A stretch of 63,999 nt of DNA, filler included, from Basidiobolus ranarum (lineage: Eukaryota): NCBI GenBank assembly GCA_040143965.1. It is 8 parts of 8 records of this genome, joined end to end, with 100 filler letters (N's around TTAATTAATTAA, not from the genome) between each part and the next. Parts side by side here need not be neighbours in the genome. Positions count along the whole stretch, not along the records: positions 48,219 to 56,130 come from JASJQH010001049.1; 7 more parts are not named here. One strand, 5' to 3'. The notes beneath the pieces are model-generated. The model had not been told where the DNA came from. It ran no database searches and was given only the letters and a program-made list of their open reading frames with translations. Shown here in pieces: positions 7,951-62,898 of the stretch (position 1 is its first letter; each line of letters opens with the position of its first letter). The position numbers and the translations under genes were made by a program.

Positions 7951-8050
7951 NNNNNNNNNNNNNNNNNNNNNNNNNNNNNNNNNNNNNNNNNNNNTTAATT
8001 AATTAANNNNNNNNNNNNNNNNNNNNNNNNNNNNNNNNNNNNNNNNNNNN
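7951..8050. other. Artificial contig linker
   Basis: 44 N + TTAATTAATTAA (stops in all six frames) + 44 N. Confidence 0.98.
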
Positions 8051-40439: not shown

Positions 40440-41356
40440 ATGAGAAATCTTTTCCAACGTGTAAGCACGAATGAATCGGAAATCGAGTCGGAAAAACCGA
40501 TGCCCATGAACCCTACTAGTACCTCCATTCTCCTAAGAATTTTGCTCATTGTCTTGGTTGGTCTTGGCACGTTAATCGGCATTCTTGCTTTGGTGGCTAC
40601 TATTCCTGGTCTACGACTTCCGGCTAGTTTAGAAGATGCCAAGTATATTGTCCAGGTGTTAAAGGAATATACGCAAAATAACGAGGAGGGACAAACCAGA
40701 ACATTCCTGATCTTCACCTTACTTTACCTTTGGAAGCAAACCTTCTGCGTTCCTGGAACCATCCTACTTGTAAGTACACACTATCCTATTCTCCTTCTGT
40801 AGACAGTTTTATAACCTTGACAATTCTCTAGAATTTAATTGCTGGTGCCTTGTATGGTATGACAACCATCCCTCTTCTCTGTTTCCTCACCGCTCTGGGT
40901 TCTACATTATGTTATTACATGTTTTACTTTGCGGGGTCTGATATCCTTGAACACTATATTCCCACCAGACTTGATAAGCTACGCACTCAAATCGACGAGA
41001 ATCGGCCTCGTATGTTCCTTTACCTGTTAACCATCCGACTTTTCCCATTCGCACCTTACTGGTTGATTAACATCGTTTCACCTTTCGTTGGTGTGCCGAT
41101 ATGGAGTTTCTTCATCACTTGTATGTTGGGTATTATTCCCTACAACTTTGTCACCATTGAGGCCGGGGAGATGTTATCCCAAGTTGAAACGGTATCAGAT
41201 ATCCTTAACCCTTGGTTTATGGTGAAGCTGCTTCTCATGTCCACAGTTCCATTCTTGTTCAGTTTCATTGGTAAACGTAAGAACAAAGAGGAAGACGTAG
41301 AGAATCCCGAATGGGATGAGGAGAAGGATGTAGAACCATTAATGTCAGAGATCTAA
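40440..41356 (+). CDS. TMEM41/SNARE-associated (VTT/DedA) membrane protein; intron 40770-40831
   Basis: YLWKQTFCVPGTILL|NLIAGALYG...TALGSTLCY...YLLTIRLFPFAPYWLINIVSP. Confidence 0.9.
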
Positions 41357-45300: not shown

Positions 45301-46464
45301 AAACTTTAGCGTAAGATCAATCGTAAATCAGACAAGTATCTTGGAAATTTACATGGATATGATTTCTACATAGAGATTAGGTGTTCCTGGAGCTACCTCA
45401 CTTTTACTTTTCTCCTTAACCACTGCTACTTTAACGCTATCTGCCCATCCGATAAGTAATATTTTGTCCGTTTTCCAACATAAATGACAACGATAGAGAT
45501 CAGCGCGTGGACTTTGCGCTGGTCGATCGATATAAGTGATACGTTGATTCGATATTGTGTCATAGATTTTGACGCCCTTATATGCAACTCATTAGAATAT
45601 ACTACAATTATCTAAATGGTAAATATGTAATTACAGTATCATTAGCCCAAGCAATCAGATCTCCTCGCCACTCTAACGCATAGATTGGACCTTCGCCACC
45701 ATGAAGGATTGTATCTTTATGTCCTAACCAGCCTATTTCGAAGTACAACAAATCATTCGAATCGAATCATATATCGCCAATAGTGTGTAGTCTTTTCAAA
45801 CCTTTTTGGTTCATTATCAGTTGTCCAGCCATTCCACCCGATACAAATTGACGAGTGCTTTTCTTACTGAATTCAGGATCAAGAGCAATACATTTCACTG
45901 GACGCATATAATTGAATGAAAAGATCTCATCGTTGTATAAGCCAGTGATTAAAACTTTGCCTGTAATGCCGAATGTTGAGTACTAAGCTTGGTATTTATA
46001 TGACCAATATGTTATCGATACTTACCATCATCTGAAGCAGTAGCTACGTACTCCTCATGGTCATCAATACTTAAGCTATTAATTGTGGCACCATGTGGAC
46101 GGAATTTTTTTACTTCGTTGCCATTAAAATCCATGATATGTACCATACCCCAATGAGTGCCTAAAACCTGAAGTAGAATAGTTTTGTTTTTCAAGGTTAA
46201 AAAGCGACCGAGTTTAATGAAATATAAATAAAGGTGTCTTGCCATGAATCTTTCCGAGATTTTCATGATGCTTACAGTATCTTTGGTGAAAATCTCGGAT
46301 ACATCGGCACCAACTCGTTGATATTTCAATTTTGGTTCCTCATCGTCATCATACTCCTCACTATACTCAGAAGAGTACTCTCCACTGACATAAGATGCAT
46401 TCTCTGAAACCTCTTCCTCTTCTTCTTCTCTAGTGGTATCCAGTTCATTTTCTGAAGTACTCAT
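42348..46464 (-). CDS. VPS41: HOPS subunit Vps41; multi-exon
   Basis: EEPKLKYQRV, LGTHWG, ATASDDGK, IAWAND, PRADLYRCHL, VASPKDIVVA..RDLEDHVTWLL, clathrin-type repeat (EMVFILGRIG, LWEDL), and C-terminal RING-H2 (FFCGHAYHESC..CPTC). Confidence 0.95.
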
Positions 46465-48118: not shown

Positions 48119-48218
48119 NNNNNNNNNNNNNNNNNNNNNNNNNNNNNNNNNNNNNNNNNNNNTTAATTAATTAANNNNNNNNNNNNNNNNNNNNNNNNNN
48201 NNNNNNNNNNNNNNNNNN
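48119..48218. other. Artificial contig linker
   Basis: Same spacer. Confidence 0.98.
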
Positions 48219-48649
48219 TAATACAGACATGAGGTTACAAGCTTGTAAAAGTGAATGTTATATTTTCATTAACTATCTGTTGAATAATGGAATTTTACAA
48301 TAGCGCTTTCCAATTTAGCTTAATGAAAGTAAAAGTTTGTCAAACCAAATTGAGTTGCTTATACCTATAGAGCTTTTAGTAAGCTTAAGCTCATAAACCA
48401 GGAGTGAATGGCTAATCCTGAGTATCCCTATTTTAAAAGATTATCTTGTCCAAATAAGTGAAGTTTACATTATAACCTTCCGCTCTAGCTTTATGAATTG
48501 AAAAATTTGTGAAAGAAGTTCGCCCGGTGTGATGTACGTATATAACATCTATTAAGCTCACACCTACATACCATGGATGAATACCTAATCCGGAGTATTG
48601 CCATTAGAAAATTTCTTACCATTGATTCAACAAAATTAAATCTTGCCCA

Positions 48650-48656
48650 TATAAAA
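48650..48656 (+). promoter_or_regulatory. TATA box of peptide-precursor copy 1
   Basis: TATAAAA 77 bp before the ATG; same position in all five copies. Confidence 0.7.
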
Positions 48657-48726
48657 TGACCCACTATGGCCTTGTGTTCTGACAACTTCGCTTTGTATTT
48701 GGAACAATTCATCTACCATTCTAGTT

Positions 48727-49410
48727 ATGTATCTCCAAGTTACCCTCATCAACGTAATCTTGTTTGCCTCTCTCGCAAGTGCATCTGATACTAAACTAAG
48801 TACCTCTACTGAGAATTTTTCTCCGACTACAGCTACCACTCTCCCAGCAAGTGAGAACATAGTGCTGGGTACTGGTGCTGGTGTCTTCATTCCCGACTTC
48901 TTATTGGATGAGAATATCGAACTCACTCCTGAAGAATCACAGTTGCGTAGTGTTAACCTTAGGAAAATATTGGCTCGTTTGTCCGAATTCACTACTGGTA
49001 GGAAAGGGAAATTCGGACGATCAAAATTCGATAAAACCGATGAAGTTATGACAACGATAACTCCTGAAACTGGTGGTCAAAATACGAATATTTTAATTAG
49101 CTCTGCCAGTGCCATCGCTCCTGATTCAGACAATGTGGGGGACACCGATAGTGGTGACAATGCTGTTGAAGAAGGAAATACGGATTTGGATACTTCTCCT
49201 GAAGAGACTGAGTTGCGACGTGGAGGGCGTGGTGGCCGCGGAGGTCGAGGTGGGCGTGGACGTGGTCGATTTGGCAGAGGTGGAAGATTCGGTCGTTTTG
49301 GTGGTCGCAGATTTGGTAGATTTGGTAGGTTTGGTAGATTCGGGAGATTTGGCGGCTGGGAATCTGGATGGAACGATAACTGCGGTGGAGATGACTGTGG
49401 AGATTGCTAA
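48727..49410 (+). CDS. Secreted Gly/Arg/Phe-rich peptide precursor, copy 1 (227 aa)
   Basis: Signal peptide MYLQVTLINVILFASLASA, acidic pro-region, SPEETELRR, then the 62-aa GGRGGR...FGRFGRFGGWESGWNDNCGGDDCGDC*. Confidence 0.9.
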   Translation: MYLQVTLINVILFASLASASDTKLSTSTENFSPTTATTLPASENIVLGTGAGVFIPDFLLDENIELTPEESQLRSVNLRKILARLSEFTTGRKGKFGRSKFDKTDEVMTTITPETGGQNTNILISSASAIAPDSDNVGDTDSGDNAVEEGNTDLDTSPEETELRRGGRGGRGGRGGRGRGRFGRGGRFGRFGGRRFGRFGRFGRFGRFGGWESGWNDNCGGDDCGDC

Positions 49411-49916
49411 GGAATTTGATTTTAAAAAAAGAAAAATATCTCACAAATCTGTTTATTTTTGTAACTGCAACTTGTTTACAAATCTTTGGCACAATTAATA
49501 AATTGCAAATTCAATCAACCCAGTAACTCTTTACGGATATCTTTCATGCCAGTAAAGTAGGGAATAAATCCAATTCAACCAAAAATTAATGTTTTGATAG
49601 TGAATTTGCAAATAAGATCAGGACTTACAATATTTGAATTCAAACAGGTCCAATAAACGTTATCCATCAATGTTAATCACAATAATAGTTAATTTTATAG
49701 TAAACCTCGCTCTGAAACAAGAGTTTCTATTTAATATAATATTTTCTCATGTGATAAAATTACTAGATTTAGTATACTACATACGCACTCTATTTTCCAT
49801 CTCTTCTGAGCAATTGTATGTAATAGCCACACAGTTGTATCTTGATTCAATTCTTAAGCCGGAGTACTATCAAGAATTCTTTGAACTATTAATGTAATAA
49901 AGCCAAACTTTGCGCG

Positions 49917-49923
49917 TATAAAA
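49917..49923 (+). promoter_or_regulatory. TATA box of copy 2
   Basis: TATAAAA 76 bp before ATG 49993. Confidence 0.65.
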
Positions 49924-49992
49924 CAACCGGTAATGTACCTATTTTATGACAGCCTCGCATTGCTTTTCAACGGCCACTCAACCATTCCAAAT

Positions 49993-50664
49993 ATGTATCC
50001 TCAAATTATCTTTATCAGTACTATTTTGTTTGCCTCTTTCACTAATGCATCTGATACGAAGCTAAGTACACCCGCTGAGGATGCTCCTTTATCCACTGCA
50101 TTCACCTTGCCAGCAAATGAGAACATGATGTTAGACACTGGATTCGGCTTTTTCATTCCAGAATTCATGTTGAATGAAGTGGCCACACTCACTCCCGAAG
50201 AATCTCATTTGCGCCGTATCAACCTTAGAAAAATATTTGTTCGCTTGTCCAAGGCCTCTCCGGTTAAACATGCAATTAGAACACTTCCTGAAACTAGCGG
50301 CCAAGATACAAATACTCCTATCATTTCTGACAGCGTTACCGTACCTGACTCAGACAAAGTTGAAGACACGGATGTTGACTACAATACAGATGATGAAGGA
50401 AATACGAATTTGGGTACTTCTCCGGAAGAAACTGAGTTGCGACGTGGAGGACGCGGTGGTCGCAGAGGTCGAGGTGGACGCGGACGTGGGGGTAGAGGAG
50501 GTCGAGGACATGGTCGCTTTGGTCGTGGCCGATTTGGAAGAAGCGGAAGGTTTGGGCGTTTTGGTGGTCGCAGATTTGGTAGGTTTGGTAGATTCGGGAT
50601 ATTTAGCGGCTGGGGATTTGATTGGAATGATGACTGCAGTGGAGATGACTGTGGAGATTGTTAG
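49993..50664 (+). CDS. Secreted Gly/Arg/Phe-rich peptide precursor, copy 2
   Basis: Homologous start MYPQIIFISTILFASFTNA (ATG 49993, not 49933); LTPEESHLRR; SPEETELRR; ends GWGFDWNDDCSGDDCGDC*. Confidence 0.9.
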   Translation: MYPQIIFISTILFASFTNASDTKLSTPAEDAPLSTAFTLPANENMMLDTGFGFFIPEFMLNEVATLTPEESHLRRINLRKIFVRLSKASPVKHAIRTLPETSGQDTNTPIISDSVTVPDSDKVEDTDVDYNTDDEGNTNLGTSPEETELRRGGRGGRRGRGGRGRGGRGGRGHGRFGRGRFGRSGRFGRFGGRRFGRFGRFGIFSGWGFDWNDDCSGDDCGDC

Positions 50665-51501
50665 TCAATTTGAATTCTCACCTTGAGCACCCTTAATGAC
50701 TTTAAAGATCAGTTTATACCACACTTTCACTCTTCCTCTCAACCAATTCAATAAAAAAGGTTTATATAGAACACAATCTGATCATTAGAAAGTTCTACTA
50801 GTAATAGGCAGTTCGGTTTGCAGATGAAACTATAATAGTCACTAGACGCCAATCGTGTATTATAGAAGTAGGAAAGAATTCGGTAATAATGATAATAAAT
50901 CCCGATATTAGTATCGACTTGTTTGCTTTGACTTCGGTAGATTCTGACATTTGTCCAATTTAGCGGCGGTTAATAAATCTATAGTTAAACTAACTTGGTA
51001 TCTCAACATTAGAATTTCTTCGTTAGTAATAAAAGTCATGATATCTGTGAATGAAGTGTTGCCTCAATATAATATCTTGATAATACCTCACATGGAGGAT
51101 TTGCTCAAAGTAGTAACTGCTGCTAAATTACCAAATTTTACCAGCGTGCAAAAATCTATAATTCAATTTACTCGTTGTTTTTTTACTATCAAAAGCAGTC
51201 ATACTTTTAATACATTAAGCGCGAAGTTCACTATGTTAAATACACATTCAACCCACAGTCTTAGTGATAGTTAATGTTAGGGATATAGTGATTTGGAACT
51301 TGAAGACAGATAATTACCAGTTTGAAAATGATAACAATATATTCCTCGGGTTTAGCCCCGTTAATGCAAAGAACCATCTAATAGTTTGGTAGTTGTATAA
51401 CATGTATTAACCTCACTCATATATTTAGGATGAATACTTGGTACTGATCATTACGATTGGAAATCTCTTCCTGTTGATATAAGAAAGTTACATCTTGCAC
51501 A

Positions 51502-51508
51502 TATAAAA
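51502..51508 (+). promoter_or_regulatory. TATA box of copy 3
   Basis: TATAAAA 76 bp before ATG 51578. Confidence 0.7.
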
Positions 51509-51577
51509 TGACTTGATATGTCGTTATTCTCTGACAGATTCGATTATCATTTCAACAAGTCATCTAGCGTTCCAAAG

Positions 51578-52276
51578 ATGCATCTCCAAATCACTTTTAG
51601 CAATGCCCTCATGTTTGCCTCTCTCGCTTATGCGTCTGGTACCAGGCCAAGTTTACCTGCTGAGAATGCTGCTCTAACCACATCTGTGACCATCCCAGCA
51701 AGTGATAACATGATATTCGAGACTGGCACCGACTACTTCATCCCTGATTTCATGTTAGATAAAGAGATCGCGCTCACTCCCGAAGAATCCCAATTGCGTC
51801 GTGTCAACCTTGGAAAAATATTTGCTCGCTTATCCAGGTCTTCTCCTGATAAGATAAGGAAACTGAGTCCATTCAAGTACCAAGAAACTGGTACACTCAT
51901 GCCGAGTATGATTCCTGATACTGGTGTGCAAAATCTAAATACTCAAGTCACCTCTGACAGCATTGCTGCACCTGATTCGGACAGAGTTGAGGACACGGAT
52001 GTTGACTACAGTGCAGATGGTGAAGGAAGCACGGATTTAGACACCTCTCCTGAAGAAACCGAGCTGCGACGTGGAGGGCGCGGTGGCCACGGACGTGGGG
52101 GTCGAGGACGTGGTCGCTTTGGAAGAGGCCGAGGACGCTTTGGTCGTGGCCGATTTGGCAGAGGTGGAAGATTCGGTCGTTTTGGTGGTCGCAGATTTGG
52201 TAGGTTTGGCAGGTTCAGCGGCTGGGGATCCGGATGGAATGATGACTGCGGTGGAGATGACTGTGGAGATTGTTAA
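51578..52276 (+). CDS. Secreted Gly/Arg/Phe-rich peptide precursor, copy 3
   Basis: MHLQITFSNALMFASLAYA; LTPEESQLRR; SPEETELRR; ends GWGSGWNDDCGGDDCGDC*. Confidence 0.9.
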   Translation: MHLQITFSNALMFASLAYASGTRPSLPAENAALTTSVTIPASDNMIFETGTDYFIPDFMLDKEIALTPEESQLRRVNLGKIFARLSRSSPDKIRKLSPFKYQETGTLMPSMIPDTGVQNLNTQVTSDSIAAPDSDRVEDTDVDYSADGEGSTDLDTSPEETELRRGGRGGHGRGGRGRGRFGRGRGRFGRGRFGRGGRFGRFGGRRFGRFGRFSGWGSGWNDDCGGDDCGDC

Positions 52277-52633
52277 TTAATTTGAGTTCAAAAATAAAGC
52301 ATTCTTAATGACTCTAAAAAAATCAGCATACACCACACGTGCACCCTATATTTCTCTCTTCCTCTCGATTAATTCAATAAAAAATGTTCTAAAGTATCAT
52401 TCAGAAGTTATACTAACGGCCGACACTTTGCTTTGCAGATACAACCACAATAGTGACTATGTTTACGATTCATTAAACGTTTAATAGATCTTGATAGTAG
52501 ATTTGTAGATCAGAGCAGGATTTACAATAACTTAATTTAGACGTCTCCAACAAATATGATCATCAAAATTAATCACAGTTATAGGCAATTCTGGTAATCC
52601 TCACTCTGAGGATGCGGGGGTCGGACCGCTTTG

Positions 52634-52729
52634 TTCGGCAGAGGTGAAAAATCCAAGTTTGGTAGATTCGGAAAATTCGGTGATTGGGAATCCGGATGGC
52701 ATGATGATTGTAGTGGATGAGATTGCTAG
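52634..52729 (+). pseudogene. Decayed remnant of a further precursor copy (C-terminal peptide)
   Basis: Translates FGRGEKSKFGRFGKFGDWESGWHDDCSG*DC*; no signal or pro-region upstream. Confidence 0.85.
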
Positions 52730-53027
52730 TCAATATGATTCCAAAAAAAGAAAAATCTCCACATCTCACAAATCAGTTTACATCACTTTCATATCTTTAT
52801 TACCCTCCTTCTAACTGCTGATCAAATAAAACGGCCGGATTTCAGTATGTCTCGAATGCACTGCGGATGGCAGATGGAGCATTTAAGAAGCTTATTATTT
52901 GAAGTAAAATATCTAAAAGATTAGTAATACTGTCATGTATTTACCATTTCGATATACATAACGTTATTGTTTGTTCCTGGTAACATAGGAACACTCGACC
53001 CATCGAAAAACCGATAAACTAAAGATA

Positions 53028-53129
53028 ATGGTAACTCCTGAAACAGGGGGCCAAGATACAACGCTTCCACATCTTTACGATGCCATCGTACCTGATTATG
53101 ATAAAGTTGAGTACACAGATGTTGATTAG
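53028..53129 (+). pseudogene. Decayed remnant of another precursor copy (pro-region)
   Basis: MVTPETGGQDTTLPHLYDAIVPDYDKVEYTDVD* compared with TPETGGQDTNT...PDSDKVEDTDVDY in intact copies. Confidence 0.8.
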
Positions 53130-53947
53130 CAACGGTTTGTATATCTAAACTTGGATAACAGGAGTTCATTTATCCAATTTAAGAACTGTTAATAAACTTA
53201 TAATTAAGCTAACTCAATATCGTCGTATAAACATTCCTTCGTTAGTAATTACCGCCATATTTCCAACATTAAACTTCGGATCAAGATTACTTCTTGATAG
53301 TAGTTCAGATTTGCACATCAGAGCAGGACTTAGATTTCCTAAATTTCCAACAGACGATGATGTCATCAACCAATTTTTGAAGAATGCAACACACTGAATC
53401 AGATTAGCTACGGCATACAACACTAACTTATATATTTCAGTCAATAATAAAGTTCATGTTTTCGATATATTAAATTAACATTCCACCTTTCGTCTTGAAA
53501 GCAGCTCATTACTATTCAATTCAAGACAAGTAATCACGAGCTTGCAAAAGTGAATATCATATTTTCATCAACTACTTGTTGAATAGTGAAATTTTCCAAT
53601 AGTGCTTTCCAATTTAGCTTAATGAAAGCAAAAGTTTGTCAAACAAAATTGACTTTTTTATACCTATAGAGCATGTGGTAAGCTCATACTCATAAACCCG
53701 GAGTGAGAAGTTAAACCTGAGTATCGCCATTTCAAAAGATTATCTTGTCCAAATAAGTGAATTTTCAATCCAACTCTCCACTCAAGCTTTATAAAATGAA
53801 CACTTTGTGAAGCAAGTTCGCTGAGTTTGATGTACGTACATAATATCTATTAAGCTCACACTTACATACCATGAATAAATACCTAATCTGGAGTATTGCC
53901 ATTAGAAAATGTCTTACCATTAATTCAACAAAATTAAATCTTGCCCA

Positions 53948-53954
53948 TATAAAA
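53948..53954 (+). promoter_or_regulatory. TATA box of copy 4
   Basis: TATAAAA 77 bp before ATG 54025. Confidence 0.7.
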
Positions 53955-54024
53955 TGACCCACTATGGCCTTGTTTGCTGACAACTTCGCTTTGTATTTGG
54001 AACAATTCATCTACCATTCTAGTT

Positions 54025-54669
54025 ATGTATCTCCAAATTACCCTCATCAACGCAATCTTGTTTGCCTCTCTCGCAAATGCATCTGATACTAAACCAAGTA
54101 CCTCTACTGAGAATTTTTCTCCGACTACAGCTACCACTTTCCCAGCAAGTGAGAACATAGTGCTGGGTACTGGTGCTGGCGTCTTCATTCCCGATTTCAT
54201 ATTGGATGAGGATGTTGCACTTACTCCTGACGAATCTCAATTGCGTCGTGTCAACCTTGGGAAAATATTTGCTCGCTTGTCCGAATTCACTCCTGGTAAG
54301 AAAGGGAAATCTAGTCGATCCCAATTCGATAAAACTGGTGAAGTTATGACAACGATGACTCCTGAAACAGGTGGTCAAGATACGAATACTCTAATCACCT
54401 CTGCCAGTGCTTTCGCACCTGATTCAGACAATGTGGGGGACACCAATAGTGGTTATAATGCTGTTGAAGAAGGAAATACGGATTTGGATGCTTCTCCTGA
54501 AGAAACTGAGTTGCGACGTGGAGGTCGAGGTGGACGCAGACGCGGACGTGGTCACTTTGGTAGAGGTGGAAGATTCGGTCGGTTTGGTGATTGTAGATTC
54601 GGGAGATTTGGTAGTTGGGGATCCGGATGGAACGATGACTGTGGTGGAGATGACTGTGGAGATTGCTAG
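54025..54669 (+). CDS. Secreted Gly/Arg/Phe-rich peptide precursor, copy 4 (closest to copy 1, shorter repeat)
   Basis: MYLQITLINAILFASLANA; LTPDESQLRR; SPEETELRR; GGRGGRRRGRGHFGRGGRFGRFGDCRFGRFGSWGSGWNDDCGGDDCGDC*. Confidence 0.9.
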   Translation: MYLQITLINAILFASLANASDTKPSTSTENFSPTTATTFPASENIVLGTGAGVFIPDFILDEDVALTPDESQLRRVNLGKIFARLSEFTPGKKGKSSRSQFDKTGEVMTTMTPETGGQDTNTLITSASAFAPDSDNVGDTNSGYNAVEEGNTDLDASPEETELRRGGRGGRRRGRGHFGRGGRFGRFGDCRFGRFGSWGSGWNDDCGGDDCGDC

Positions 54670-55491
54670 TTATTTAGAATCCAAAATGAGAAAACACTCA
54701 ATGACTCTGATAAATCTGTTTATGTCGATTTGAATTCAAAACTTGAATATCTTTGTTGCTTCCCACAAATGTTTCAATTTAATTTCCACATCGTTGTAAC
54801 TAACCTATTGACTAATCTAATAAAACGGTTTTGTATAGGAGGCAGTACCACACTATTATGAAATTGCAATAGTGTCCGGTGTTGTTCAACAAGTAAAAAA
54901 ATGAAAACTCTCAACAGTTGGTAATCTTTCCATCATAATTGAATTAAGTCGGTACCAGGCTAGTATCGTACTCTTTGCCAATAAATTGTTACATTTTCTG
55001 GAGGAAGAACAGTTTCAGTATCAAGTAATGCGGATGACATAAAGCAGATGGAACAGAAATATTTAGTAAACTTATGATATGAAGTAGAATCTCTAAATGA
55101 TTAGTAACATTATCACTGTTTTATCACATTGAAGCAGAGTAAATAACGTTGTGTTAATGTTCACACGGTTATAGAAACTTCACACAGTAGTAATTGCGGT
55201 CATACTTCCAGATCAACATTTCATCTGGATAGTAGTTTAAATGATGGATTTGCACATCAAAGCAGGACTTGAAATATCCTGAATTGCGTACCTGCAAAAA
55301 TGAATTTCGTATTATCATCAACTATTGGTCCAATAATGGAATCTTGCAATTTAGCTTAACGAAAACCAAAGTTTGTCAAACCAAATTGACATGTTTAGTT
55401 ATACCTATGTAGCATGTATTAAACTCACTTTCATATATCAGGAGTGAGTTCCTAGTCCTGAGTATCGCTATTTCACAAAATCTCTTGTCTG

Positions 55492-55498
55492 TATAAAA
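55492..55498 (+). promoter_or_regulatory. TATA box of copy 5
   Basis: TATAAAA 75 bp before ATG 55567. Confidence 0.65.
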
Positions 55499-55566
55499 GG
55501 ACCAAGTATCGCCCTTTTGTTCAACAGTTCAATTTGCTTTCCAATAAACAATCTACCATTACAAAG

Positions 55567-56130
55567 ATGTATCTCCAAATTACCCTTATCAACGCCATCC
55601 TATTTGCCTCCCTTGCAAGTGCATCTGATACTAAACTAAATACGCAGATTGAGAATTTTTCTCCAACTATAGCTACTACCTTCCCAGCGAGTGAAAACTT
55701 GATACTTAAGACTGGTACCGACTTCTTCATTCCCAATGTTATGCTCGATAAGAAGGTCGAGCTCACTCCCGAGGAATCTCAGATGCGTCGTGTTAAGCTT
55801 GGAAAAATACTCGCCCGCTTGTCCAAGTCAATTCCTGGTAAGATAGAGAAATTCAAGCCATCGAAGTTATTATATTATACGACAATACTTCCTGAAACTG
55901 ATGGTCAATACACAAACACTCCTATCACCTCCGATATCGTTACTGTACCTGATTCAGGCAATGTTGAGGATACTGAGGTTGATTACAGTGCGGATGGTGA
56001 AAGAAATACGAGTTTAGATACTTCTCCTGAAGAAACTGAGTTGCGACGTGGAGGTCGAGGTGGACGTGGAGGCCGTGGTCGTGGTGGGTGAGGGAGAGGG
56101 CGAGGAGGCGTTGGTGGGTGTCGCTTTTGG
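55567..56130 (+). CDS. Secreted Gly/Arg/Phe-rich peptide precursor, copy 5, running into the contig end (apparent TGA at 56089-56091 lies in noisy terminal sequence)
   Basis: MYLQITLINAILFASLASA; LTPEESQMRR; SPEETELRRGGRGGRGGRGRGG. GR-like codons continue after the TGA up to the linker. Confidence 0.82.
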
Positions 56131-56230
56131 NNNNNNNNNNNNNNNNNNNNNNNNNNNNNNNNNNNNNNNNNNNNTTAATTAATTAANNNNNNNNNNNNNN
56201 NNNNNNNNNNNNNNNNNNNNNNNNNNNNNN
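56131..56230. other. Artificial contig linker
   Basis: Same spacer. Confidence 0.98.
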
Positions 56231-56337: not shown

Positions 56338-58910
<2,573 letters not shown>

Positions 58911-62034: not shown

Positions 62035-62898
62035 CTATAACTTCGACTTCTCAAATATCTCTCTCGTTAACGCCAAGATAGCCTCCTTATAAGTTTCGTC
62101 TTTCCAAGTTGTGGAGCGAGGTATATTTCTAATAGGTTGGGCAGTTTGTGTTTCCCTATTTGCTAACGCTCTAGCACTATCTAAGACTTCTGTTTGTGGT
62201 GCAATGCCATGAACTAATCCAGCCAGCAGAGCAGAATCTCCAGGAAAGGGACGGATTCCCCAGAAGCACTCTCGATAAACTTCTTCGGATAACTTACCTT
62301 TAACTATAGGTATCATCGCTTGCGTTAAAGGATGTAGAAAGTCTACTTCATACTAAGCAATGGAGTTAATCGAAAGTTGCATCCAAGCGCAAGTAATTTT
62401 ACAGTCTTTACCATACACAAGTATCCAAGATCGGAGCACATAGTTCGATAATCATGGGCTATAGCTAATACCTAATAATTATGATAGTCTCAATGGAATG
62501 TGTATATACTAGAAACTGTTGAAGTGTAAGGGAAACAATACCATTCCTTCGCCAAAAGCATTACCATTAATAGCGGCAACTGTTGGTAGGGGAAAAGTGA
62601 TTAATCGTAGCAATAGTTTTTTGTACATTTCAGTTGTGGCTCTATTATTTTTTAATATATTTTCGTGGTCAATTCCAGTGGCGTAGAGTTCTTCCCAACC
62701 GGTGGTAATCACTGCACATGGCCCATCCACTCCTTGTTTGGGTACACATTCCTCAACTTGATCGAATGCTTGTAGTAGACAGTTGAGTAATTCTTTATTC
62801 AGGTGACATCCCTGCAATCGCATACGTATAACGAAGTGTGGTCCTTCTCTCCTCAAGCTCACCAACGTCTCTCCATTAAAGTGATAATCGAAACGCAT
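62035..62898 (-). CDS. Crotonase-superfamily protein (enoyl-CoA delta-isomerase-like); multi-exon
   Basis: AVITTG..LYATGID, LLLRLITFPLPTVAAINGNAFGEG, LAIAHDYRTM..GYLC, ALLAGLV. Confidence 0.85.

Follow-up and report, generated by a model that had tools for sequence, protein, structure and literature searches.

Does each precursor encoded at this locus of Basidiobolus ranarum carry one protease-recognition element twice, and is a membrane-active helix freed behind the first of the two sites? Members of the genus Basidiobolus share the gut of amphibians and reptiles with bacteria, and at times cause infections in people and animals. The window (the whole stretch of DNA analysed, 63,999 nucleotides) is a chain of ~8-kb contigs joined by N-linkers, so that adjacency across the linkers carries no information. 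The contig of interest, C1049, contains five copies of one family and two remnants, and nothing else (Table 1). It is flanked by N runs at 48175-48218 and 56131-56174; over the whole window, N runs lie near 7951, 15999, 24045, 32079, 40104, 48119 and 56131. Ordinary genes are found on other contigs: an ARG5,6-like gene (56581-58482, minus strand), a Vps41-like gene (46012-46464, minus), a VTT-domain gene (40859-41356, plus) and an enoyl-CoA hydratase-like gene (62509-62898, minus). The ARG5,6-like and Vps41-like genes were rejected as genomic context, as they sit on other contigs.

The copies share one layout (residue numbers such as 74-75, Arg84 and 164-165 follow copy 3). From the N-terminus, a hydrophobic start is followed by a variable stretch, a conserved acidic block with box 1, and an amphipathic segment of 11 residues; then come a basic stretch of variable sequence, the acidic linker, box 2 together with RR and, lastly, the Gly/Arg/Phe tail. 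By inspection of the sequence, the hydrophobic N-terminus has 19 residues and ends in A-x-A in all five window copies, and a helix at residues 3-20 is found in this region in the model of copy 3. In the same model the pLDDT is under 50 across residues 89-148, in the region of the basic stretch and linker. The tail of copy 5 is 13 residues long and ends at a stop close to the contig end. An acidic tip containing Trp and three Cys closes the tails of copies 1-4 (49349-49407 in copy 1); it is kept in most own-genome copies and absent from B. meristosporus, and its odd Cys could link chains.

Table 1. Features of contig C1049 in window coordinates (candidate cuts are marked A, B and C).
Feature	Position	Strand	Remarks
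Contig C1049 (whole)	48219..56130		7912 bases; C1049:509 = window 48727
Copy 1, 227-aa precursor	48727..49410	+	ORF
Copy 1, likely signal peptide	48727..48783	+	19 hydrophobic residues ending A-S-A, by inspection
Copy 1, conserved acidic lead-in to box 1	48880..48921	+	G-x-F-I-P-x-F-x-L-D-E-x-I-E; P56 in 33/34 rows; dN/dS 0.12
Copy 1, box 1	48922..48945	+	LTPEESQL; dN/dS 0.10
Copy 1, positions 74-75, candidate cut A	48946..48951	+	RS (RR in copies 2-5)
Copy 1, amphipathic 11-residue segment	48952..48984	+	positions 76-86
Copy 1, aliphatic-x-x-Arg84 motif, candidate cut B	48967..48978	+	ILAR; motif in 34/35 rows
Copy 1, variable basic stretch, then disordered acidic linker	48985..49191	+	dN/dS 0.62 and 0.42
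Copy 1, box 2 + RR, candidate cut C	49192..49221	+	TSPEETEL + RR
Copy 1, Gly/Arg/Phe-rich tail	49222..49407	+	62 aa, net +10; acidic three-Cys tip
Copy 2	49993..50664	+	box 1+RR 50188-50217; helix 50218-50250; box 2+RR 50416-50445; tail 50446-50661
Copy 3	51578..52276	+	box 1+RR 51773-51802; helix 51803-51835; box 2+RR 52043-52072; tail 52073-52273
Two degenerate family remnants	52619..53126	+	tail-like 52619-52726; linker-like 53001-53126
Copy 4	54025..54669	+	box 1+RR 54220-54249; helix 54250-54282; box 2+RR 54490-54519; tail 54520-54666
Copy 5	55567..56091	+	box 1+RR 55762-55791; helix 55792-55824; box 2+RR 56020-56049

An earlier note on this DNA had described two related PEE-x-x-LRR sites in each precursor, and in this respect it is exact. 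The upstream motifs of copies 1-5 are LTPEESQLRS, LTPEESHLRR, LTPEESQLRR, LTPDESQLRR and LTPEESQMRR, respectively. Each is followed by (V/I)(N/K)L(G/R)KI(F/L)(A/V)RLS, then by the variable basic stretch, the acidic linker and SPEETELRR. In copy 1 the span 48922..49221 runs precisely from the Leu of the first motif to the end of the RR of the second.

The likeness of the two sites was assessed at the level of single sequences and of the family. Tested singly, the pair of sites is the best internal match in all five window copies, with a weak signal (2, 36, 22, 13 and 16 of 300 shuffles reach it); in the paralogue P0010 the pair is not significant (171/300), and it is the best internal match in none of three B. 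meristosporus proteins. The family alignment comprises 35 rows (27 from the own genome and 8 B. meristosporus proteins); not included are fragments and remnants, as well as two gene models that are fused and three that are broken or have no box 1. In the 35-row profile, where the B. meristosporus rows have gaps at the site-2 RR columns, positions 61-75 match positions 151-165 with a score of 30.5, against a maximum of 17.4 in 1000 column shuffles (0/1000). When shuffling is confined to the two conserved blocks the maximum is 21.6 (0/5000), and after removal of the S/T-P-E-E cap columns a likeness of 15.4 is left (0/20000 shuffles). The 8 B. meristosporus rows alone give 17.9 on the box diagonal, which falls short of their best match and coincides with the average of the best matches after shuffling; the strength of the profile thus comes from the own-genome rows. 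A DNA pattern spanning both boxes matches 34 times in the 65-Mb genome, always within the family, and the reversed pattern has no match. Judged by the profile, the two boxes are homologous, one element repeated within one precursor, and an old internal duplication would be the simplest origin.

The substitution pattern locates the constraint in the box. Near-invariant columns are P56, P68, E69, E70, R84, D155 and E160, and the Arg pair 74-75 is not among them; Leu163 is present in 31/31 aligned rows. Pairwise dN/dS among 22 close paralogues (the pairs being non-independent, and values from only two codons noisy) is 0.10 for box 1, 0.66 for RR74-75, 0.38 for the segment 76-84, 0.62 for the basic stretch, 0.42 for the linker, 0.07 for box 2 and 0.35 for RR164-165. 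The second boxes of B. meristosporus read EL-WGR in 14/15 cases and are followed directly by a dibasic pair in 0/15, with RR further on in many tails; basal members show LYRR, LARR or LWGR at this place. As the boxes are constrained and the Arg pairs far less so, the dibasic pair is unsupported as the conserved signal. It is the acidic box PEE-x-(Q/E)-L that is conserved here, rather than the Arg pair.

At site 1 the pair is dibasic in 22/35 rows and shifted by one in 4 more, and losses also occur in full-length genes. On a DNA tree built without the codons counted, RR74-75 changed ~6-7 times among the 22 paralogues (HR 3-4, RS 2, FR 1) and Arg84 once; by codon, the loss events number 4-5 at 74, 2 at 75 and 1 at 84, small counts taken by eye from the tree. 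Codons at all three Arg positions contain CpG, so that mutation bias singles out none of them. The RS of copy 1, earlier taken as a natural processing variant, is indeed a loss of the dibasic pair but not a unique one, being one of about six independent losses. Most changes fall on 74, and Arg75 is kept in 20/22 members of the expanded clade, so that 75 may be cut.

The helix expected behind the first box is recovered in the structure models (predicted for residues 68-88). It begins at Pro68 and extends to ~87-88 across the RR both in the full-length model of copy 3 (pTM 0.19, 156/232 residues under pLDDT 50, from a shallow input alignment of 35 rows) and in an AlphaFold model of the 54-residue front module (helix pLDDT ~80, pTM 0.39). 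With these pTM values a compact pro-domain is not supported by the models. Searches with the front-module model gave no match in Foldseek and, in a fold search, a best Z of 4.1 to generic helices, which is uninformative on the fold. In respect to the segment 76-86, the hydrophobic face (76/78/81/82/85) is conserved and the alignment-averaged periodicity peaks at 100-110 degrees. The hydrophobic moment is 0.44-0.54 with shuffle p values of 0.08-0.30 in the window copies, and p is below 0.05 in 1/35 rows. The amphipathy claimed for the helix is therefore real but modest; the helix is also short and only weakly charged, with a net +2/+3 in the window copies and no net charge in 6/35 rows.

Within this helix lies another Arg of interest. 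An aliphatic-x-x-Arg84 motif closes the segment in 34/35 rows, with Ile commoner than Leu at P4 and mostly Ala or Ser at P2 (Asp in 6 rows); the site is fully dibasic in 5 basal rows (LFKR, LLRR, LIRR, MVKR). Conservation drops right after positions 84-86 (mean entropy from 1.56 to 2.42), and every one of the 35 rows retains RR at 72-75 or the Arg84 motif. In the kexin motif P1 is Arg and P4 is preferably aliphatic, and P2 may vary (PMC8528282; bioRxiv 10.1101/2020.05.27.120113); AR, ER and PR are cut more slowly (PMC13404059), and accessibility and structure also affect cutting (PMC2515848). Since it fits this motif, Arg84 is, from the sequence, a serious second candidate cut site, with the caveat that aliphatic-x-x-Arg arises easily in amphipathic helices.

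These observations bear on the proposal that Kex2 cuts at RR75 and frees a membrane-active amphipathic peptide starting V/I-N-L as a second product. The frequency of the dibasic pair at 74-75, the retention of Arg75, the conserved hydrophobic face and the predicted helix speak in its favour, and the N-terminus of the 76-86 segment presumably recalls the mastoparan-type peptides of wasps. The front-module-only gene P0011 (C605, L032:3669-3986, minus strand) ends, with no acidic linker, in a 25-residue helix-like stretch of net charge +8 after LIPR. Its moment has p 0.009 or 0.067 depending on the window chosen, and it is the best antimicrobial-peptide look-alike in the family; but P0011 itself has LR and not RR. 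Small residues at P1' are common in cleaved sites (PMC2515848). Against the proposal, dibasic pairs downstream of the helix occupy no conserved position in the 35-row alignment, and cuts at 75 and box 2 would leave a fragment of 72-100 residues that is net acidic in 31/31 rows having both sites. Together with the rows of zero charge, the single row in which the moment beats the shuffles, the repeated loss of RR and the Arg84 within the helix, this leaves a discrete membrane-active helix unsupported as a product. The twin motifs stand as observed, whereas the idea of a free helix peptide is weak, and a short membrane-attacking peptide released from behind box 1 is unlikely.

Both models, with their continuous helix across the RR, would also suit a site 1 that is never cut, T-P-E-E being a helix cap and residues 68-88 one binding helix (a sorting signal or a partner-binding element), with site 2 alone processed. 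Ser or Thr before Pro is a typical helix N-cap, and the residue before Pro is Thr in 33/33 own-genome first boxes and Ser/Thr in 29/34 second boxes; conservation on both sides of the RR points the same way. However, AlphaFold readily extends helices in disordered chains, the pTM of 0.39 argues against a compact fold, the likeness of the boxes survives removal of the cap columns, and the cap residue is replaced by Ala or Ile in 11/14 first-box units of B. meristosporus. An uncut site 1 is therefore rather doubtful. A quite different cut, directly after PEE-x-E-L by a dedicated protease, with the Arg as the mere start of Arg-rich products, would agree with the free variation of the residues after box 2 (RR, QR, RG, RH, YR, AR, WG) next to the fixed Leu163, and with tail repeats that begin in register just behind this Leu (P0012 has WGR units, P0010 has YRR units). 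The four kexin paralogues of the genome could differ in specificity; kexin, however, requires Arg at P1, all basal members fit L-x-x-R, and no known secretory protease of such specificity was identified, which makes this cut quite improbable.

The proteins might also be secreted mostly uncut, as disordered acidic/cationic block polymers of an adhesive or matrix, in which the boxes would mediate interactions. The whole chains are near neutral and have their charges in separate blocks, which agrees with this, as do Gly/Arg/aromatic repeats, terminal Cys, many tandem copies and the adhesive material on the capilliconidia of Basidiobolaceae, described in a sister genus (PMC13370150). It is at odds with the Arg-ended kexin-type motifs behind both boxes in nearly all rows and with the fusion of the front module to a six-Cys domain, and we regard it as improbable. 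Two further candidates were rejected: the double-glycine leader of bacteria, on account of its misfitting spacing and of the hydrophobic signal with which these proteins begin, and an S-x-E phosphorylation motif, since basal members have D, N, A or I at the residue in question.

The reading we prefer, at a probability of roughly 45%, is that of a two-module precursor, each module consisting of an acidic spacer, a box, an Arg cut and a cationic segment, which would be cut by kexins to give the Gly/Arg/aromatic tail as the main product. The acidic motif probably marks where the precursor is cut. Once the signal peptide has been removed, the acidic parts would roughly cancel the cationic charge during secretion, and behind each box a Golgi kexin would then cut at the first Arg that suits it. 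Counted without the signal peptide, the precursors of copies 1-5 carry a net charge of -3, 0, 0, -8 and -2, respectively, and the tails of copies 1-3 carry +10 to +12. The cut behind box 2 (RR, or L-x-x-R in basal members) would free the tail, which is most likely a polycation acting on microbial surfaces, a guess from its composition. Further RR pairs in the tails of copies 1-4 make the ends of the product uncertain. Behind box 1 the candidates are Arg 75 and 84, with an amphipathic segment of 9 residues between them; this segment would be the helical end of a conserved pro-region or, at most, a peptide of 7-9 residues, and no free membrane-lytic helix would arise. Against the kexin reading, P4 in the window copies is not the preferred aliphatic residue but Gln (site 1) or Glu (site 2), the AlphaFold helix 68-88 spans both candidate cuts, and some family members have no box 1 or no box 2. 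Four kexin-like loci with catalytic motifs and a P domain are present in the genome (two in opposite orientation on C6895, one each on C2655 and C6903); a mushroom also has several kexin paralogues (PMC9769878), so this number is not unusual as such. Of the repeated protease-recognition leader proposed earlier, the homologous repeat within the precursor and the presence of kexin-type genes are borne out, but not the dibasic signal.

The family is large and, within the searches made, confined to Basidiobolus. A search of the own genome yields 49 matches at a threshold of E<=10 (a count of matches, not of copies), and the loci fetched contain 33 first and 34 second boxes, including remnants and one inverted pair counted twice; the family size is some 35-45 copies. 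The inverted pair (C10419, L021, 2.3 kb) consists of two near-identical frame-broken copies and may be a real duplication or an assembly artefact. One database search returned 7 family proteins among 1075 candidates, all from Basidiobolus, and a database of 1.84 billion representatives gave 11 family matches, the 10 looked up being 8 from B. ranarum and 2 from B. meristosporus. Further searches found 5 family proteins among 8000 candidates scored, and 3 among 100, with 10 cluster members. All database relatives bearing a name are called "hypothetical protein", and none was found outside Basidiobolus in these searches; a metagenome scan gave 250 pattern matches and 0 confirmed relatives. Pfam has no family for the five window copies (0/5 at E<=1) and nothing above cut-off for 8 further family queries, the PDB searched by sequence gave low-complexity matches (best E 0.063), and the ESM Atlas had no usable match for copy 4 or for the six-Cys domain. 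A literature search, with most subscription journals outside its coverage, found no description of the family, and the family motifs as text occur in unrelated papers. Among 25 papers on Basidiobolus and antimicrobial peptides, the 20 listed do not describe it, judged by title or the start of the abstract; a preprint on 19 Basidiobolus genomes, searched by term, has no passage on it.

Variation across the family concerns mainly what follows the front part. Tails are of Gly/Arg/Phe, Gly/Arg/Trp or Tyr/Arg/Asp type. In two tandem chimaeras (C3789, L031:2-445 and 1311-2000), which have no box 2, the front or middle part is fused to a Lys-rich six-Cys domain; the same domain, without a Pfam or Atlas match, also occurs alone behind its own signal peptide (C7298, L074:1381-1719). 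In two open copies box 1 and the helix are missing, whereas box 2 and the cationic tail are retained (C1492, L035:978-1577; C541, L046:2132-2500, minus strand). In P0010 (C10182, L030:1837-2448) the tail consists of six-residue Tyr/Asp/Arg repeats separated by RR. A bolder interpretation of this shuffling is that the box is a portable address read by a dedicated Basidiobolus protease (perhaps a kexin paralogue), which would pick one bond among many Arg, dibasic or not, and that the front module (signal, box 1, helix) is a shuffled secretion and processing cassette for unlike cargoes, namely the three repeat types and the six-Cys domain. We hold it to be speculative and on the whole unlikely; if true, this early-diverging gut fungus would have a way of exporting peptides that has not been described before.

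In general, some 35-45 probably secreted precursors with strongly cationic tails are a testable candidate for how Basidiobolus acts on its neighbours, and the box offers a precise handle by which cut sites can be predicted and members recognised in newly sequenced genomes. Should processing depend on the upstream acidic box and not on the dibasic pair, screens based on a KR/RR rule would miss such precursors.

The precursors had been likened to Kex2-processed repeat proteins (KEPs) and to dikaritin precursors. By definition a KEP has at least three tandem repeats, each of 8 residues or longer, that lie between dibasic sites (Umemura 2020, PMC7329392), and B. meristosporus, with 43, is the most KEP-rich strain of that survey. 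The family is likewise made of fungal precursors, probably secreted, with dibasic sites (in the window, 4/5 copies at site 1 and 5/5 at site 2), but here the acidic box is repeated and not the core, two unlike products are expected in place of at least three like repeats, and a window copy, if cut at every KR/RR, would fall into 3-5 fragments that are unlike one another, so that membership is not supported. Even P0010, the most KEP-like member, has repeats of 6 residues, below the limit of 8. None of the family accessions encountered appears in the KEP table; ORX90060.1, numbered within the B. meristosporus array, is listed there as a stand-alone KEP (PMC7329392), and this one member may, going by the accession number alone, have been machine-listed. 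Dikaritin membership is likewise unsupported, as there are no highly repeated core peptides and no UstYa/DUF3328 gene on the 7.9-kb contig; a search of the fragmented genome assembly gave 0 matches but was silent in control genomes too.

Ece1 of Candida albicans is similar in being a fungal polyprotein from which kexin cuts could free a cryptic amphipathic peptide. Candidalysin, however, has 31 residues and needs cuts on both sides (PMC5784256), whereas the amphipathic part of the family has 9-11 residues with no conserved dibasic end beyond; candidate kexin-type sites flank only the 9-residue segment 76-84, and no sequence relation to Ece1 was found in the database searches. With the K2PP effectors (Outram 2021, PMC8528282; bioRxiv 10.1101/2020.05.27.120113) the family shares a disordered pro-region in the first half that ends in KR, RR or LxxR. 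It differs from them in having two boxes and, in the window copies, no folded mature domain (pTM 0.19 for copy 3); a Cys-rich C-terminal domain occurs only in the C3789 chimaeras.

The closest architectural analogue, by likeness of design, is the complex precursors of linear peptides in spiders (cupiennins). In these an anionic propeptide precedes cationic peptides with anionic linkers between them, and the C-terminal portion of the propeptide serves a second time as a linker (PMC7889660); the family, too, has anionic linkers between its cationic segments. The spider precursors are animal proteins with no homology found, and their linkers are 11-13 aa long versus 60-70 in the family. Their PQM rule (Arg at -1, Glu at -2 to -4; PMC7889660) holds at window site 2 but fails at site 1 (SQLR, QLRR) and at the LWGR of B. 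meristosporus. The convertase-processed precursor of several segments with acidic spacers is a known design; what is new in the family is that its acidic box, duplicated and strongly conserved, outlives the dibasic pair, and that the front module bearing it is shuffled among cargoes.
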